DNA of 64,000 nt from Escherichia coli (GTDB lineage Bacteria > Pseudomonadota > Gammaproteobacteria > Enterobacterales > Enterobacteriaceae). The first letter of the stretch is position 1; each line of letters starts with the position of its first letter. Positions 17,923-64,000 of the stretch are shown in pieces. The translations under genes were made by a program, and so were the position numbers. Under the pieces are notes generated by a model. It was not told where the DNA came from. It searched no databases and saw only the letters and a program-made list of their open reading frames with translations. The DNA lies in the NCBI RefSeq assembly GCF_011045215.1, contig NZ_CP049201.1; one strand, given 5' to 3'.

Positions 17923-18160
17923 ACGCACTGCAGCGTGCTTTAATGGGTTTCTCACGATCGTACCGCTCTGCTCCTCGCTAAGTTGTTCTGTGAGTTATAG
18001 TTATAGAGAAATCACGGGTACGAATGTTGAACAGATGGCGACGCCACCTGTTCAACGACCAACCACACGGCCCTCATTACGACCCCTGAACACAAACGGT
18101 AATGGCAAATGTCATTAAATATTAGTAAGATAGCCTCTTTACATAAAATCCCTTAATATT

Positions 18161-19804
18161 ATGCGCCAGGTATTATCGTCTCTTTTGGTGATTGCTGGAC
18201 TTGTGAGTGGTCAGGCAATCGCCGCGCCTGAATCCCCCCCGCATGCTGATATACGCGACAGCGGTTTTGTCTATTGCGTCAGCGGGCAAGTCAACACCTT
18301 TAACCCATCCAAAGCGAGCAGTGGGTTAATTGTCGATACCCTTGCCGCCCAGTTTTATGATCGACTGCTGGATGTCGATCCCTATACCTATCGCCTGATG
18401 CCAGAACTTGCCGAAAGCTGGGAAGTACTCGACAACGGCGCGACCTATCGCTTCCACCTACGTCGCGATGTTCCGTTTCAAAAAACCGACTGGTTTACTC
18501 CCACTCGTAAAATGAATGCCGACGATGTGGTGTTTACCTTCCAGCGAATTTTTGACCGCAACAACCCGTGGCATAACGTCAACGGCAGCAACTTCCCCTA
18601 CTTCGACAGCCTGCAATTTGCCGATAACGTGAAAAGCGTCCGTAAACTGGATAATCATACCGTTGAGTTCCGTCTGGCTCAGCCGGATGCTTCTTTTTTG
18701 TGGCACCTCGCAACCCATTATGCTTCGGTCATGTCGGCAGAATATGCCCGGAAGTTAGAGAAAGAAGATCGCCAGGAGCAACTCGACCGTCAACCGGTCG
18801 GCACTGGACCGTATCAGTTGTCGGAATACCGCGCCGGGCAATTTATTCGCCTACAACGTCATGATGACTTCTGGCGCGGTAAACCGTTAATGCCGCAGGT
18901 GGTGGTGGATTTAGGCTCCGGCGGCACCGGACGTCTGTCGAAACTCCTGACCGGGGAATGCGACGTTCTGGCCTGGCCTGCTGCCAGCCAGCTATCCATT
19001 TTGCGTGACGACCCGCGCTTGCGTTTAACGCTGCGTCCTGGGATGAACGTCGCCTATCTGGCATTTAACACCGCCAAACCGCCGCTAAATAATCCCGCTG
19101 TCCGCCATGCGCTGGCACTGGCGATTAATAACCAGCGCCTGATGCAATCCATCTATTATGGTACGGCTGAAACGGCGGCCTCTATTTTACCGCGCGCCTC
19201 GTGGGCCTATGACAACGAGGCTAAAATTACTGAATACAATCCGGCGAAATCGCGCGAACAGTTGAAGTCGTTGGGGCTGGAAAATTTAACGCTGAAACTG
19301 TGGGTGCCCACACGTTCGCAGGCGTGGAACCCCAGTCCACTGAAAACTGCCGAACTGATTCAGGCGGATATGGCGCAGGTTGGCGTAAAAGTGGTGATTG
19401 TGCCGGTAGAAGGTCGCTTTCAGGAGGCGCGGTTGATGGATATGAGCCATGATCTGACGTTATCCGGTTGGGCGACGGACAGTAACGACCCGGACAGTTT
19501 CTTCCGTCCGTTACTGAGCTGCGCGGCAATTCATTCACAGACCAACCTCGCCCACTGGTGCGATCCGAAATTCGACAGCGTGTTGCGTAAGGCGCTCTCC
19601 TCGCAGCAGCTGGCGGCGCGTATTGAAGCCTATGACGAAGCGCAGAGTATTCTGGCGCAGGAATTGCCCATTTTGCCGCTGGCGTCGTCATTGCGTTTGC
19701 AGGCCTATCGGTACGATATCAAAGGTCTGGTACTTAGCCCGTTTGGTAACGCCTCCTTTGCTGGGGTGTATCGCGAGAAACAGGATGAGGTGAAAAAACC
19801 ATGA
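18161..19804 (+). CDS. sapA: Periplasmic peptide-binding protein of Sap ABC transporter
   Basis: 547-aa ORF with signal peptide; family-5 SBP. Confidence 0.93.
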
Positions 19805-20766
19805 TTATCTTCACCTTACGCCGCATTTTGTTATTGATTGTCACCTTGTTCCTGCTGACCTTCGTTGGCTTCAGCTTGAGCTATTTCACTCCACACGCGC
19901 CGTTACAAGGCGCGTCACTGTGGAATGCCTGGGTGTTCTGGTTTAATGGCCTGATCCACTGGGATTTTGGTGTTTCCAGCATTAACGGTCAACCAATTGC
20001 CGAACAGTTAAAAGAGGTCTTCCCGGCGACGATGGAACTGTGCATCCTCGCCTTCGGTTTTGCGCTGATTGTTGGCATCCCCGTGGGGATGATTGCCGGG
20101 ATTACGCGCCATAAGTGGCAGGATAACTTGATCAACGCCATCGCCTTACTGGGCTTTTCAATCCCGGTGTTCTGGCTGGCGCTTCTGTTGACGCTGTTTT
20201 GTTCACTCACGCTAGGTTGGTTGCCCGTTTCAGGGCGTTTCGATCTGCTCTACGAAGTGAAACCGATTACCGGTTTTGCGTTGATTGATGCCTGGCTTTC
20301 GGACTCACCATGGCGGGATGAAATGATCATGAGCGCAATCCGCCATATGATATTGCCCGTGATCACCCTGTCGGTTGCGCCAACAACTGAAGTGATCCGC
20401 CTGATGCGTATCAGCACTATTGAAGTGTATGACCAGAACTATGTTAAAGCGGCGGCGACCCGCGGTTTGTCGCGCTTTACTATTTTGCGTCGCCACGTTC
20501 TGCATAACGCGTTACCGCCGGTTATTCCTCGCCTGGGCTTACAGTTTTCCACCATGCTGACGCTGGCGATGATCACCGAAATGGTTTTTAGCTGGCCGGG
20601 TTTAGGGCGCTGGTTAATTAACGCCATCCGCCAGCAGGATTACGCAGCCATTTCCGCCGGAGTGATGGTGTGTGGCTCACTGGTCATTATTGTTAACGTG
20701 ATTTCTGATATTTTGGGTGCCATGGCTAACCCTCTGAAACATAAGGAATGGTATGCCTTACGATAG
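19801..20766 (+). CDS. sapB: Sap ABC transporter permease
   Basis: 321-aa membrane ORF; 4-nt overlap with sapA. Confidence 0.93.
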
Positions 20767-39465: not shown

Positions 39466-39837
39466 AGCTCCTCCTTAATGACAGGGTTGCGAAGCCCTGA
39501 TTCTCTTCAGGGTGAATATTAAAGATAACACAAACATCGCGTAACGATTTGATAACAACCCAAATTGATAAAAGAGGAGAAACCTTGTGGCAAAGCAAAT
39601 GACAACCCCGCCGCAGCGGGGTCAAGGATCAGTGAGTAATGATCCAGAGGAGTTCGGCCCAGAAGAGCATCGACAGAGAAAACGCGCCCATCCAGGACCA
39701 ATATTTCATATTTGTGTTGATCATAGGCTACACCCTTAACGGTTATTACTTTGTGTTGAGATAACTCAACCTGTTATTGCTGCGGTGTATTAAAAGCCCT
39801 GTAATTCATTAAAAATGGGTAATAAGAATGATGATAA

Positions 39838-52214: not shown

Positions 52215-52259
52215 ATGAAAGCAATTTTCGTACTGAAAGCTTGGTGGCGCACTTCCTGA
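52215..52259 (+). CDS. trpL: trp operon leader peptide (14 aa, tandem Trp codons)
   Basis: ATG AAA GCA ATT TTC GTA CTG AAA GCT TGG TGG CGC ACT TCC TGA = [14 protein letters not shown]. Confidence 0.95.
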   Translation: [14 protein letters not shown]

Positions 52260-52299
52260 AACGGGCAGTGTATTCACCATGCGTAAAGCAATCAGATAC

Positions 52300-52329
52300 C
52301 CAGCCCGCCTAATGAGCGGGCTTTTTTTT
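52300..52329 (+). terminator. trp attenuator (3:4 terminator hairpin)
   Basis: CAGCCCGCC-TAAT-GAGCGGGC followed by eight T residues. Confidence 0.95.
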
Positions 52330-60072: not shown

Positions 60073-60579
60073 ATGAATCGTATTGAACATTATCATGACT
60101 GGTTACGTGACGCCCATGCAATGGAAAAGCAAGCCGAATCTATGCTTGAATCCATGGCCAGCCGTATAGATAATTATCCTGAACTACGTGCTCGTATTGA
60201 ACAACATCTTAGTGAAACCAAAAACCAGATTGTTCAACTGGAAACTATTCTTGATCGTAATGACATTTCACGTTCAGTCATTAAAGATTCCATGAGTAAA
60301 ATGGCTGCGCTTGGGCAGTCAATCGGTGGTATATTCCCTTCTGATGAAATAGTCAAAGGCTCTATTAGCGGATATGTCTTCGAGCAATTTGAAATCGCCT
60401 GTTACACCTCTCTATTAGCAGCAGCAAAAAATGCCGGTGATACAGCCTCAATTCCGATCATCGAAGCGATTTTAAATGAGGAAAAGCAAATGGCCGACTG
60501 GCTGATTGAGCATATTCCGCAAACAACTGAGAAATTTTTAATTCGATCTGAAACTGATGGCGTAGAAGCGAAGAAATAA
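60073..60579 (+). CDS. yciE: DUF892 ferritin-like stress protein
   Basis: 168-aa ORF MNRIEHYHDWLRDAHAMEKQAE. Confidence 0.92.
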   Translation: MNRIEHYHDWLRDAHAMEKQAESMLESMASRIDNYPELRARIEQHLSETKNQIVQLETILDRNDISRSVIKDSMSKMAALGQSIGGIFPSDEIVKGSISGYVFEQFEIACYTSLLAAAKNAGDTASIPIIEAILNEEKQMADWLIEHIPQTTEKFLIRSETDGVEAKK

Positions 60580-60603
60580 TACCCTTTATGCCATGTCCTT
60601 ATT

Positions 60604-60630
60604 GACCCCGTATATTACGGGGTCGTTTTT
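60604..60630 (+). terminator. Rho-independent terminator after yciE
   Basis: GACCCCG-TATATTA-CGGGGTC followed by GTTTTT. Confidence 0.85.
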
Positions 60631-60638
60631 GTGCGGAA

Positions 60639-60761
60639 TTAAAAACGATATCCTGCTGAGAACATAAACACCCACGGATCGAGGCGTACGCTATCGTGTT
60701 GCTGTGCACCGCCCAGCTTATAATTGGCGGTGGTATCGATATCCATGTACCAGACTGACAT
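60639..60761 (-). pseudogene. ompW: 3'-terminal remnant of the outer membrane protein W gene (last 40 codons)
   Basis: Minus-strand translation MSVWYMDIDTTANYKLGGAQQHDSVRLDPWVFMFSAGYRF-stop matches the OmpW C-terminus; an in-frame stop lies directly upstream (60765-60767), so the N-terminal about 170 codons are absent. Confidence 0.85.
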
Positions 60762-60948
60762 GTTTTAAAAAATGAAATAAGACATTGTATCTGAAAGAAA
60801 AAACAGGATTTTGAGGCGCTTTTTTATACCGTTTCTCCGTGTTTTTAACTGCCTGATTTTATTGAAATCTTTTTTAGTTTTGCAGAAAGGATTTTTTGCT
60901 CGATCGTTTTAATTTTATACATTCCTGATAACGGAAATTTTTTTGCCG

Positions 60949-60978
60949 TTGACAGTTTTTGTTCTCCGGGGCTATATT
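60949..60978 (+). promoter_or_regulatory. Predicted strong sigma-70 promoter inside the prophage terminus
   Basis: TTGACA (60949-60954), 18-nt spacer, TATATT (60973-60978). Confidence 0.55.
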
Positions 60979-60984
60979 CCTCAC

Positions 60985-61064
60985 ACAACCGCAAAATCGG
61001 TTGTCGGGATTGGCGTCCCGGATGTTTACGGAGCGATATAAGACGCGCCCGCGTCTTTTTTCAT
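60985..61064 (+). ncRNA. Candidate prophage-encoded small RNA (about 80 nt: two stem-loops, single-stranded AU-rich tract, intrinsic terminator)
   Basis: Stem-loops ACAACCG-CAAAAT-CGGTTGT (60985-61004) and CGGGA-TTGGCG-TCCCG (61005-61020); terminator AAGACGC-GCCC-GCGTCTT plus TTTTC (61040-61064); no ORF with an RBS. Confidence 0.4.
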
Positions 61065-61224
61065 ATCGTTTGCACAGTCACATTCGCGATTTATGGCGGG
61101 CTGTGTGGGGGAGCCGAAAGGCTCGCCGGTTTCCGTACCCGGTTACGCCAACCCTGCACAGTTCGCCACCAGTTCGATTGGCGTCGTCGGTGGCGATAAT
61201 TTCCAAATGTACGGAGTTATCGTT

Positions 61225-61788
61225 ATGACCACTCAGATTTCTGTCGAAACTCTTTCCCCGATTACACACAATCAAATTCCCGTTATCACTACCGAGTTGC
61301 TGGCGCAGCTTTATGGCACGGACTCAGATAACATCAAAAAGAATTATTCGCGCAACGCAGATCGCTTTTGTGAAGGTAAGCACTTTTACAAGGTGATTGG
61401 CGATGAACTAAAGAATTTGCGGGTGACTTTAAGTCACTCACAAAATCCCATCTCTCCCAAAACTCGCTCCCTCATCCTCTGGACAGAACGCGGCGCAGCC
61501 CGCCATGCCAAAATGCTCGAAACCGATCAGGCGTGGGAAGTGTTCGAAAAACTGGAAGACTGTTATTTCAGCCATAAACAACCACCAGCAACACAAAACT
61601 CCCCCACCCCAAATGATGGATGCGCATTACTGATCCACTTCGATAAACACGGGCAGGTCGAGTTCACGGAAAAAGTCCCCGCCGATGCGATGGTATGCAC
61701 TCTGGAACGGTTTAAATTTTATCTGGAGCAACATGGGTGGATCGTTGCCCGTAAAGAACAATTGGTAGAAAGGTTGATGCGGTTTTAA
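61225..61788 (+). CDS. Prophage accessory (moron) protein with phage antirepressor-like N-terminal domain (ORF6N/Rha/KilA-N type, unverified)
   Basis: 187-aa ORF MTTQISVETLSPITHNQIPVITTELLAQLYGTDSDNIKKNYSRNADRFCEGKHFYKV; GGAG RBS 8 nt upstream; the ORF-track start at 61093 rejected (no RBS, GC-rich structured region). Confidence 0.6.
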   Translation: MTTQISVETLSPITHNQIPVITTELLAQLYGTDSDNIKKNYSRNADRFCEGKHFYKVIGDELKNLRVTLSHSQNPISPKTRSLILWTERGAARHAKMLETDQAWEVFEKLEDCYFSHKQPPATQNSPTPNDGCALLIHFDKHGQVEFTEKVPADAMVCTLERFKFYLEQHGWIVARKEQLVERLMRF

Positions 61789-61796
61789 TGAATGCA

Positions 61797-61826
61797 AAAC
61801 CCCGGATGATCACCGGGGTTGATTTT
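61797..61826. terminator. Bidirectional terminator between the moron gene and tfa
   Basis: AACCCCGG-ATGATCA-CCGGGGTT followed by GATTTT. Confidence 0.75.
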
Positions 61827-62403
61827 ATCGAGGATGATTGCCGCTAATCGTCATCTCTCTGATTGAGAGTAAATCATCCAAGTTATTCAGCTCTTGCTTC
61901 ATCTCCCGCTGGCGGCGATAAATCTCGTCATTGCGATCGACCTGCGCCTGAACCATTGCAGTAAGCAGCTCATCCAGTTGTTGCATTGACAACTTTACCT
62001 GCTGATTTTCCGCATCGCGCCATACCATGGTTTTCCGTGCCGTGACTGATTTTGCTGATATCACCACCGGGTAAAGACGGGCCATCGAATCCGGTCCCCC
62101 GTTCCAGCTATGACCGTTCCATTCAAAAATGAATGGCTGCGCCTCCTGCTCTGTACGCCATGCTTCAATTTCCCGGCGTTTGGCTGCTTTTGCTGCTTCC
62201 AGCATCTCTGGCGTGACGGTGAACGGCGTTATTTCTCCCCACTTGCCGCTTTGCAGTTCCTGCCAGACTCGCTGCCCTGTCTCTGCTGTATCCGTGGCAG
62301 TTGCCGTATACGGAACCGGTTCATCCATGCCATCAAACAACACCCCGCAGTCAATCGCGCCATTTTCAAGATAACGCGCATTTTCGATGCGTTTTATTTC
62401 CAT
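61825..62403 (-). CDS. Putative tail fibre assembly/chaperone protein
   Basis: 192-aa ORF (ATG at 62403, AGGTG RBS) starting 8 nt after the stf stop; MEIKRIENARYLENGAIDCGVLFDG...; not the lambda Tfa family as far as I can judge. Confidence 0.5.
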   Translation of the reverse strand: MEIKRIENARYLENGAIDCGVLFDGMDEPVPYTATATDTAETGQRVWQELQSGKWGEITPFTVTPEMLEAAKAAKRREIEAWRTEQEAQPFIFEWNGHSWNGGPDSMARLYPVVISAKSVTARKTMVWRDAENQQVKLSMQQLDELLTAMVQAQVDRNDEIYRRQREMKQELNNLDDLLSIREMTISGNHPR

Positions 62404-62410
62404 AAAACAC

Positions 62411-63835
62411 CTACGCAATACGTATGAACAAACCAATCATGACACTGGCTGACCCGGCAGACCCGAGTTCATCGCCTGACAGTGCACGATATGACCCCGG
62501 CATACCACCACCAGAACCCCGCACATATACGGAAACGCTGCCGTTATATCCAACCCCGCTACCGGTCGTGCCGTAACACATAAATTCAACCGCACTCAGG
62601 CGTGACCCCGGATAACTGTAACCGCGCTTTATCCGGCGGTCGGTGTCTGCGTCTCCCTTACCGTTATAAGCCGCCAGTACAAGACTGCCTGCACCGTACC
62701 AGCCGTCCGTGGTACCGGGAGCAATACCGGACAGAAGAGAGATAATGTCCTGTGAGGTAATCTTCAGATTTTCCCAGCCAGTCAGATAACCATTACCTGT
62801 TGTCCAGTAGCGGCTGTAATAAACATCGCCATTGATACCGTAGAAAATAATGGCCTTTGGTGTATATCGCGGTTCCGGTGGATTATTGCGTGCCTCAACC
62901 CACCGGATGCTGACCACCCCGTTAAACAACACACCTCCGGATATGATTTTACTGCCACCCTCAACAAAATATTCACCCGGCGTCGCATTCCTTACCCATG
63001 CCAGAAAATCATCCTCTGTGTTAAAACGGATGCGTTCTGCGGGCAGAAAAATATGCCCAAAACCAAATGCGCCAGGTGTCGCCAGACGGCCTTCAGTCCG
63101 GTCGCGAATGTCGCTCTGTGGCGTCATTGTGGCTGCGCTTTTCAGTCCAAGATTATCACGGGATTCCTGCTGAGCCTCTTCACCTTCATCAGCCAGCTCT
63201 GATAAACGATTCGCCGTTTTCAGTGTCGCAGATAACGCGGTGTCAATATCCTCCCTGACATGCTCTGCATCAGATGCAGCCTGTTTAGCAGCTTCAGCGT
63301 CCTTTTTTACCTCCTCGGCGGCATTCTCAACCTGTGAGACCAGATTTTCGGCCTGTTGTTTACCCTCCGCAACCGCGTCGGCGTTCTGCTGAACACCTTC
63401 CGCCAGTTTTTTTACCTCTTCTTTTTCCCGAGCGGCAGCGTCTGCATGTTGCCCTGCCTGTCGTTCGCTTTCTGTTGCAGTTTCCGCGCTCTGCTGCGCC
63501 TGCGCCACCAGTTCTTCGAACCGCTTAACAACATCCGGCTTCAGGTCGCCTTCATCGAGGGCAGTCAGAAAGTCGTTCAGCGTGCCAGGCTTTGAGTCGT
63601 CGTAAACCGAAATATCACCGACACAGTATTCCCTTTCAATACACGACCGAAGATAAACGTCATATTTTCCGGTCTGAGCTTCAAAAGCATATTCTCCTGC
63701 CGGACCTGTCACCACTGTCGCCACCGTTCTCATGACCACTGCGGATGTATTCTGTCTGGCTTTCAGAATAATATGGTATCCGGACATGGGGAGTCCCGCG
63801 CCATCCGTCAGCACACCCGAAATTAATACAGACAT
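62411..63835 (-). CDS. Side tail fibre protein (lambda Stf-like N-terminus, Ala-rich coiled-coil middle, Gly-rich C-terminal domain)
   Basis: 474-aa ORF MSVLISGVLTDGAGLPMSGYHIILKARQNTSAVVMRTV...VYDDSKPGTLNDFL aligns by eye with lambda Stf MAVKISGVLKDGTGKPVQNCTIQLKARRNSTTVVVNTV...VYEDSQPGTLNDFL. Confidence 0.85.
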   Translation of the reverse strand: MSVLISGVLTDGAGLPMSGYHIILKARQNTSAVVMRTVATVVTGPAGEYAFEAQTGKYDVYLRSCIEREYCVGDISVYDDSKPGTLNDFLTALDEGDLKPDVVKRFEELVAQAQQSAETATESERQAGQHADAAAREKEEVKKLAEGVQQNADAVAEGKQQAENLVSQVENAAEEVKKDAEAAKQAASDAEHVREDIDTALSATLKTANRLSELADEGEEAQQESRDNLGLKSAATMTPQSDIRDRTEGRLATPGAFGFGHIFLPAERIRFNTEDDFLAWVRNATPGEYFVEGGSKIISGGVLFNGVVSIRWVEARNNPPEPRYTPKAIIFYGINGDVYYSRYWTTGNGYLTGWENLKITSQDIISLLSGIAPGTTDGWYGAGSLVLAAYNGKGDADTDRRIKRGYSYPGSRLSAVEFMCYGTTGSGVGYNGSVSVYVRGSGGGMPGSYRALSGDELGSAGSASVMIGLFIRIA

Positions 63836-64000
63836 TTTTATTTCCTGATTCAGAAAACATTAACCAAAATAATTGACGCCTTTTTTCTTGCCACTGGCTT
63901 TCCCCTTTGCAGAAATATCCGTGGCCAGCGACAGATTCAGCGAAAATCCCTGCACCGGTGACAACGAAAATTCCACTGACTCTGCCTGCCAGTTATGGTC

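Follow-up and report, generated by a model that had tools for sequence, protein, structure and literature searches.

Gene content of the locus

This work concerns the ompW-yciE region of an Escherichia coli genome (assembly GCF_011045215.1, contig NZ_CP049201.1), where the gene for OmpW, an outer-membrane protein, meets the end of a prophage. The stretch analysed, 64,000 nt long and referred to below as the window, consists of chromosomal backbone in the order ycjM ... puu ... sap ... trpLEDCBA-yciG-yciF-yciE up to position 60638; the junction and the phage-derived genes occupy 60639-64000 (Table 1). An earlier note on this DNA, made from the sequence alone, had recognised the conserved yciG-yciF-yciE order and a terminator shared by yciE and ompW. 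Both were confirmed, and the terminator, a hairpin with a T-run, is kept in the intact locus, where it stands between yciE and the ompW stop codon.

Past the terminator the window contains, in succession, the last codons of ompW, AT-rich DNA, a plus-strand module made of a promoter, regulatory RNA elements and an antirepressor gene, and then two tail fibre genes, both transcribed towards the junction. The fibre genes and their direction had been noticed before, as had the AT-richness of the DNA next to ompW. The description of that DNA as junction sequence was incomplete: it is a phage arm of an attachment site, followed by the promoter and regulatory RNA genes, which had been overlooked together with the rest of the plus-strand module.

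Table 1. Features of the ompW-yciE junction and of the adjoining prophage end in the window.
Feature	Position	Strand	Basis or comment
yciE	60073-60579	+	Open reading frame (ORF); colinear E. coli loci have it annotated as yciE; the chromosome's final gene ahead of the junction
Terminator after yciE	60603-60625	+	Hairpin with a 10-pair stem, 6 G-C pairs, then TTTTT
Displaced original ompW 3' end	60639-60764	-	Stop codon (60639-60641) and codons 172-212
35-base core, GTGGTATCGATATCCATGTACCAgACTGACATGTT	60730-60764		attL/attR identity stretch in STEC308 and the GCA_025590505.1 contig
In-frame TAA closing the ompW frame on the phage side	60765-60767	-	Alignment to intact ompW
AT-rich phage P arm of attR	60765-60948		184 bases, 29.3% G+C against 51% in the chromosome
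Candidate integrase arm-type site, GTTTTGCAGA	60877-60886		Motif conserved in the PPompW_132418 P arm
Sigma-70-type promoter, TTGACA-18-TATATT	60949-60978	+	11 of 12 consensus matches; predicted driver of the small RNA (sRNA) and antirepressor module
IsrK-like sRNA with C4 a1/b1 target element	60972-61061	+	Rfam RF01394 isrK, 75.2 bits (gathering score 50); RF03163 c4-a1b1, 48.6 bits (gathering score 46.7)
Terminator of the IsrK-like sRNA	61040-61057	+	Hairpin prediction
C4-type antisense RNA element	61089-61173	+	Rfam RF01695 C4, 77.6 bits (gathering score 45)
44-codon upstream ORF	61093-61224	+	Overlaps the C4-like element; in frame with the antirepressor, no stop between
ORF6N-domain antirepressor, 187 aa	61225-61788	+	PHROG 2379 'anti-repressor', E = 3.9e-89, full length
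Terminator separating the antirepressor gene from the convergent tail-fibre assembly gene	61798-61820	+	Hairpin
Tail-fibre assembly protein (DUF4376), 192 aa	61825-62403	-	PHROG 1141, E = 1.8e-84; Pfam DUF4376 in relatives
Side-tail-fibre-like protein with lambda Stf-type N-terminal domain, 474 aa	62411-63835	-	PHROG 2636, E = 2.2e-161; Pfam phage_tail_N in relatives
P2 gpD-like tail protein, C-terminal 46 codons, cut by the window end	63862-64000 (139 bases)	-	Translation match

Displaced 3' end of ompW and the attachment site

The minus-strand reading frame 60639-60761 is translated into MSVWYMDIDTTANYKLGGAQQHDSVRLDPWVFMFSAGYRF, which is identical to residues 173-212 of intact OmpW, as the earlier note had recognised. 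At the DNA level 122 of the 126 bases of 60639-60764 agree with intact ompW, and the four that differ leave the encoded peptide unchanged. A match of 126 bases at 97% identity, found at the expected genomic position, excludes chance. Alignment to the uninterrupted locus of strain AHM8C212RI, a check proposed earlier, places the breakpoint exactly between 60764 and 60765, with Asn172 (60762-60764) as the last codon of ompW homology. The former estimate of about 60762 was right to within one codon. This copy of ompW consists of codons 172-212 only, preceded by the TAA and phage DNA and lacking the signal peptide and eight-strand set of the full-length 212-codon gene; no intact ompW frame continues rightward of 60761. 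By alignment, the stub next to yciE is the displaced original 3' end of ompW.

The same segment corresponds to the attachment site duplication published for PPompW prophages, with one end shifted by a few bases, and aligns with the annotated attR repeat of PPompW_132418 (LC567822). Judged by this correspondence, the feature is the right-hand attachment junction (attR by the lambda convention, the tail fibre end) of a prophage in ompW. The earlier note had come to the same assignment and had put the integrase end outside the window; the integrase indeed lies at the far prophage end in all relatives.

In STEC308 and the GCA_025590505.1 contig, attL and attR agree perfectly over a stretch of exactly 35 bases, which corresponds to window positions 60730-60764, while the flanks differ on both sides. 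Strand exchange can therefore be placed inside this core. The shorter core suggested before, ACATGTCAGTCTGG, lies within it. The G at 60753 in the core is private to the window.

The P arm that follows the core is homologous to the attR flank of PPompW_132418, the two being aligned over about 140 nt. The decamer GTTTTGCAGA, present in this arm, occurs in three tandem copies in the P' arm of the relatives, between the phage-borne ompW end and int; three exact copies were observed in the 64 kb against about one expected by chance. Such an arrangement is the layout expected for the arm-type sites of a lambda-type integrase. The relatives also have a 9-bp inverted repeat between the ompW stop and int, which could serve as a terminator.

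Prophages of the relatives

An antirepressor identical to that of the window is encoded on contigs that follow the window colinearly from trp up to position 64000, at 97.0-97.9% identity. The closest of these contigs, in GCA_025590505.1, matches the window at 97.9% identity over 12.8 kb and stays colinear until the window ends. This contig (DAJMPI010000001.1, 798 kb) was walked across the whole prophage (about 540.3-587.5 kb), which is some 47 kb in size. It starts with yciC, ompW (212 aa), int, xis, exonuclease VIII and dicB, followed by genes of a CI-like repressor, ydaS/ydaT, replication genes, RusA, Q, a DNA methyltransferase and lysis genes. Lambda-type head genes come next (Nu1, A, W, B, C, D, E, FI, FII) and then tail genes of P2 type (V, W, J, I, H, G, sheath, tube, E, T, U, X, D). 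The right end consists of Stf, Tfa, ORF6N, attR, the ompW stub and yciE. The integrase of the relatives has 376 aa with Pfam Arm-DNA-bind_1 and Phage_integrase domains, and Xis is encoded next to it.

The prophage of STEC308, about 40 kb long, shows the same two junctions, with int and xis adjoining a 212-aa ompW; its sheath, gpW and fibre genes are pseudogenised. The best complete-genome match at the junction (98.9%) is E. coli C5 (NZ_CP010122.1). Its ompW prophage, seen in stretches at about 3.256 Mb and 3.571-3.620 Mb, has been split by an inversion that breaks within DUF4376 genes belonging to two prophages, and also holds a Mu-like prophage near the lysis and early region. C5 was dropped as a model for the window prophage because of this inversion and insertion. 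A further related ompW prophage, in GCA_049157025.1, carries KwaA/KwaB genes (Kiwa defence) beside Q, according to recorded Pfam matches (positions 17929-19340 of stretch L024).

By gene content, the closest relative is a mosaic, combining int, early and head genes of lambda type with a contractile tail of P2 type. When 50,697 phage genomes were compared at megablast sensitivity, none spanned more than 20% of the structural region (20 kb) of GCA_025590505.1. The term lambdoid, applied to the prophage in the earlier note, fits integration, regulation and heads, all three seen in relatives only, whose integrase, attachment site arms, early region and head genes are lambda-like; it does not fit the tail module by the fibre gene, which is of the P2 contractile type.

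Fate of ompW

The earlier note held that the strain lacks functional OmpW unless the far end of the prophage supplies a replacement 3' end. It is this caveat that applies, and the loss was not borne out. A full 212-aa ompW ORF is present at the integrase side in STEC308, GCA_025590505.1 and the second contig, GCA_049157025.1, in each case formed by the 5' part of ompW joined to a diverged, phage-borne 3' end. Deposited PPompW phage records carry the same 41-codon replacement end. Compared with the native 3' end, the phage-borne one has about 77% DNA identity, and outside codons 185-196 the two differ by nine synonymous and no non-synonymous codon changes. Since only synonymous changes occur there, the strand-coding part appears to be translated and under long-standing purifying selection.

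A query made of ompW and int was covered by at least 80% in 1706 of 5426 complete E. coli genomes, and in the sampled rows of these 1706 genomes ompW was annotated as intact. Even in C5, despite the rearrangement, the int-ompW junction is intact elsewhere in the chromosome. As every inspected relative has a replacement 3' end restoring the 212-aa ORF, loss of ompW is unlikely, and in this strain the gene is probably intact at the far end of the prophage.

Overall, we are confident, short of certainty, that 60639-64000 represents attR with the adjoining right end of a PPompW-family temperate phage, which integrates into ompW and keeps this gene full-length. The events of integration are seen in the relatives and would apply here as follows. 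The phage would encode a lambda-type tyrosine integrase with an arm-binding domain, and its attP would hold a diverged copy of the last 41 ompW codons (about 77% DNA identity) enclosing the perfectly matching 35-base core. Exchange within the core would join the chromosomal 5' part of ompW to the phage 3' end next to int, giving an attL outside the window. The original 3' end would be left promoterless and closed by TAA beside yciE, as attR, the piece present in the window. ompW would thereby stay full-length, only residues 185-196 being replaced. The phage side of attR comprises, in order, the P arm, the promoter and IsrK/C4-antirepressor module, a second fibre set (Stf-like and DUF4376) and the end of a P2-type contractile-tail operon.

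Several points weigh against this reading. The integrase end of this particular genome falls beyond the window, and prophages at the ompW locus do get rearranged, as the inversion and Mu-like insertion in C5 illustrate. The best relatives are 97-98.9% identical to the window, with no identical one found; the exact junction 44-mer has no match in IMG/VR, and a junction 46-mer has none in one genome per GTDB species. One sentence of Bobay et al. (PMC3603311) can be read as listing ompW among genes disrupted by integration.

The window reaches just 3.2 kb into the phage, so the right prophage end might alone survive beside the ompW stub with the rest deleted; degraded versions are known, such as STEC308 with its pseudogenes and the rearranged C5. 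We consider such a defective remnant unlikely: all four window ORFs are intact, the P arm retains an arm-type site, and complete prophages, about 47 kb long, are colinear with the window up to its final base.

True inactivation of ompW would require that the far side has no functional replacement end, this having been lost, mutated or separated by rearrangement. The window does show nothing of ompW except the 3' remnant, and rearrangement between prophages at this locus is on record, with inversions between the ompW and ydfJ prophages reported in PMC8112680; the sentence of PMC3603311 mentioned above may point the same way. Against it stand the 212-aa integrase-side ORF or, for deposited phages, the same replacement end in all relatives inspected, the rearranged C5 among them, together with the ompW-int adjacency in the 1706 genomes and the purely synonymous change in the strand-coding parts. 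Inactivation is accordingly improbable in our opinion, and an ompW-integrating phage that leaves the gene full-length remains the preferred reading.

Tail fibre genes and the P2-type tail

The truncated gene at the window end, overlooked in the earlier note, is 44/46 residues identical to the C-terminus of a 358-aa protein of the GCA_025590505.1 contig, which has a weak Pfam Phage_GPD match and belongs to PHROG 52 'tail protein' (E = 5e-92). In five of the six nearest contigs this gpD-like gene is adjoined by the gpX, gpU, tape measure, tube and sheath genes. The sixth (L009) has a Mu-type baseplate and departs from the window directly after the fibre gene. Of the P2-type tail operon the window holds just these 46 codons, the whole operon being seen in the relatives.

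A classical lambda-like siphovirus prophage like the published O145:H28 PPompW, with a J-type gene and a non-contractile tail upstream of the fibres, would share its integrase and attachment site family with the window and agree with the lambda Stf-type N-terminal domain of the fibre, but is hardly tenable, given that the gpD-like C-terminus occupies the place directly upstream of the side-tail-fibre gene where J-type genes would stand, that P2-type tail genes follow it in all of the six nearest contigs except the Mu-type one, and that nothing in the window corresponds to the published right end (J, then effector genes).

A mosaic PPompW-family phage with a contractile tail is not a P2-like phage either. 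In place of Q, P, O, N, M and L, which encode the P2 capsid and terminase, and of the int/C/cox/ogr control region, the relatives have Nu1, A, W, B, C, D, E and FI of lambda type together with lambdoid early genes.

Taken together, the window (61825-63835) and the GCA_025590505.1 stretch (18567-20334) show that the phage carries two fibre sets. One is the P2 H/G-type pair within the tail operon; the other, a lambda Stf-type fibre with DUF4376, follows gpD. When the window is compared with its relatives, the Stf/DUF4376 pair is the most divergent part, with 93.8-95.7% identity against 99.6-100% for the adjoining sRNA and antirepressor module. No identical match is recorded for the exact 474-aa fibre protein.

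Putative regulatory RNAs and antirepressor

All three Rfam covariance-model matches in the plus-strand module (isrK, c4-a1b1 and C4) exceed their gathering scores, and Pfam ORF6N is recorded in proteins identical to the antirepressor on 92 contig blocks. The promoter matches PisrK of Gifsy-1 in position (PMC4825925). More generally, the order of promoter, short terminated sRNA, short upstream ORF and antirepressor resembles both isrK-orf45-anrP of Gifsy-1 (PMC4825925) and the c4-icd-ant genes of the P1/P7 immI region (RF01695, RF03163). The differences are that the window module lies at the far right end by attR, and that its 44-codon ORF, occupying the position of orf45 in Gifsy-1, is in frame with the antirepressor.

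The 10-mer GATTGGCGTC is present at both 61008 and 61176, and the C4 element carries its partial complement. This repeat is a hint that the C4/IsrK-like RNAs may control the antirepressor. The predicted duplex energies of the C4-like element with its presumed targets were no different from those of shuffled controls.

Two further observations concern the same module. Translation from a start at 61093 would yield an extended antirepressor of 231 aa, reminiscent of the Ant1/Ant2 pair of P1. The module (60949-61788) is complete from the promoter through IsrK/c4-a1b1 and C4 to ORF6N and stands at the extreme right prophage end beside attR; versions about 79% identical to it are annotated as 'Ant' in many Shiga toxin (Stx) phages.

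Replaced OmpW segment, probably its last loop

All eight amino acid differences between the native and phage-borne ends of OmpW fall within residues 185-196. The native sequence of this segment is NYKLGGAQQHDS, that of the phage-borne end is SYKSNGTPVKDA or KYKSGVTTVKDS, and at least two loop alleles are found at the integrase-side junction of the E. coli relatives. Among solved structures, the E. coli OmpW chains 2F1T and 2MHL match the hybrid protein. Because loop 1 joins strands 1 and 2 in the eight-strand topology (PMC10833342), residues 185-196 should be extracellular, and we infer that they form loop 4 (L4), between the last two strands of the eight-stranded barrel. An AlphaFold2 model of the hybrid protein, built from a three-sequence alignment, was unusable (mean predicted local distance difference test, pLDDT, of 30) and is not the basis for this placement.

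Of the roughly 120 Enterobacteriaceae species genomes among the matches listed, none has a phage-type loop in its native ompW. Simple capture of the phage-borne end from an enterobacterial donor species was rejected, as no native carrier is among the matches listed.

In the single genome with a phage-type loop among the matches listed, the loop adjoins a phage integrase and is fused to a truncated rlmC. It is Escherichia albertii NBRC 107761 (NZ_BBMY01000048.1, reverse strand, about 5063), where the phage-type end has the loop KYKSGVTTVKDS and an adjacent integrase and stands in frame with rlmC (TIGR02085 positions 151-232), not with ompW. The fusion points to a rearrangement or to a secondary site of integration.

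A 42-kb viral contig, IMGVR_UViG_3300031370_000117, whose OmpW is not of the E. coli type, has the ompW 5' part with one loop variant at one end and, at the other, a stop-preceded ompW stub with a different variant. As both features occur in this contig, the ompW site and the replacement of the 3' end are not confined to ompW of the E. coli type.

Lysogeny by ompW phages may amount to surface conversion, in which L4 would be exchanged for a phage-specific allele while the flanking strands are kept. We offer this as a tentative idea, unlikely as it stands, relaxed constraint on the loop being the simpler explanation for the changes. If conversion does occur, it could alter recognition of OmpW by colicin S4, for which OmpW is the receptor (PMC2649078), by OmpW-dependent phages, such as the T4-like Serratia phage using it as a receptor (PMC10132071), or by conjugative TraN. 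The lysogen might then be protected or changed in its properties as a recipient. OmpW is the recipient-side partner of R100-1 TraN with Ala142 as the specificity residue (PMC10833342); Ala142 lies outside the swapped segment.

Chromosomal backbone

Outside the junction, the backbone (1-60638) has standard gene order, and its identity to any of the 5426 complete RefSeq E. coli genomes does not exceed about 98.5-98.9% in stretches of 6.6-25 kb. The lineage of the strain appears to be absent from this set. Rfam matches to the STnc180 sRNA (39595-39797, minus strand) and the trp operon leader (52236-52329, plus strand) are ordinary and lie at the expected positions.

Significance and comparison with known systems

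The prophage junction in ompW is real, common and already described in kind. The arrangement occurs in about a third of complete E. coli genomes, and for annotation the 40-codon ORF by yciE should be regarded as a displaced attachment site duplicate; it is no evidence of an ompW knockout. Pseudogene calls on such stubs can mislead predictions of sensitivity to colicin S4 and to OmpW-dependent phages, as well as of TraN-alpha/R100-type conjugation. The same integration module is found on structurally different phages, namely a siphovirus with effector loci and a mosaic with a lambda head and a P2 tail. A replacement end which alters only what we take to be the last loop of OmpW is, in addition, a testable candidate for lysogenic conversion of a receptor.

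The nearest known systems are the PPompW prophages of Shiga toxin-producing and enteropathogenic E. coli (PMC8112680; LC567822 and others), and ompW is among the most occupied prophage hotspots (Bobay et al., PMC3603311). P08/PPompW is integrated in ompW with attL/R of 121 bp (Nakamura et al., 2021, PLoS Pathog, PMC8112680). The window element shares with these prophages the target gene, the position in ompW, a duplicated ompW 3' end of about 121-126 bp and a homologous P arm with conserved arm-type motif, and the int region of its relatives is 94% identical in DNA to the deposited PPompW integrase. The perfect identity extends over 35 bp here; the phage copy of PPompW_132418 departs 12 bp earlier on the P-arm side (AATCTACCAGTG versus AACATGTCAGTG). 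PPompW phages in the published set are siphoviruses similar to lambda, with type III effector genes (espO, nleG, espM) and internal attB sites at the right end, whereas the right end in the window has the C4/IsrK-antirepressor module, the Stf/Tfa pair and the P2-type contractile-tail operon.

As a whole, the relatives belong in neither the P2 nor the lambda family. Their tail gene order, V-W-J-I-H-G-FI-FII-E-T-U-X-D, is that of P2, yet P2 capsid, ogr, cox and C genes are absent. Their head genes, Nu1-A-W-B-C-D-E-FI-FII, resemble those of lambda and phage 21 (about 73% DNA identity to the latter), and the layout of Q, RusA, the CI-like repressor, int and xis is that of lambdoid phages, without the lambda tail genes.

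Phage 21 and e14 integrate into icd and supply an alternative 3' end of this gene. Their integration is summarised in PMC3603311. The ompW system resembles it in the use of a tyrosine integrase acting at the 3' part of a coding gene, in an attP that holds a diverged gene end, in the preserved length of the ORF and in the displaced pseudo-3' end. It differs in the target and in integrase specificity, and also in what is exchanged: part of a cytoplasmic enzyme in icd, and in ompW what appears to be the last surface loop of an outer-membrane protein.

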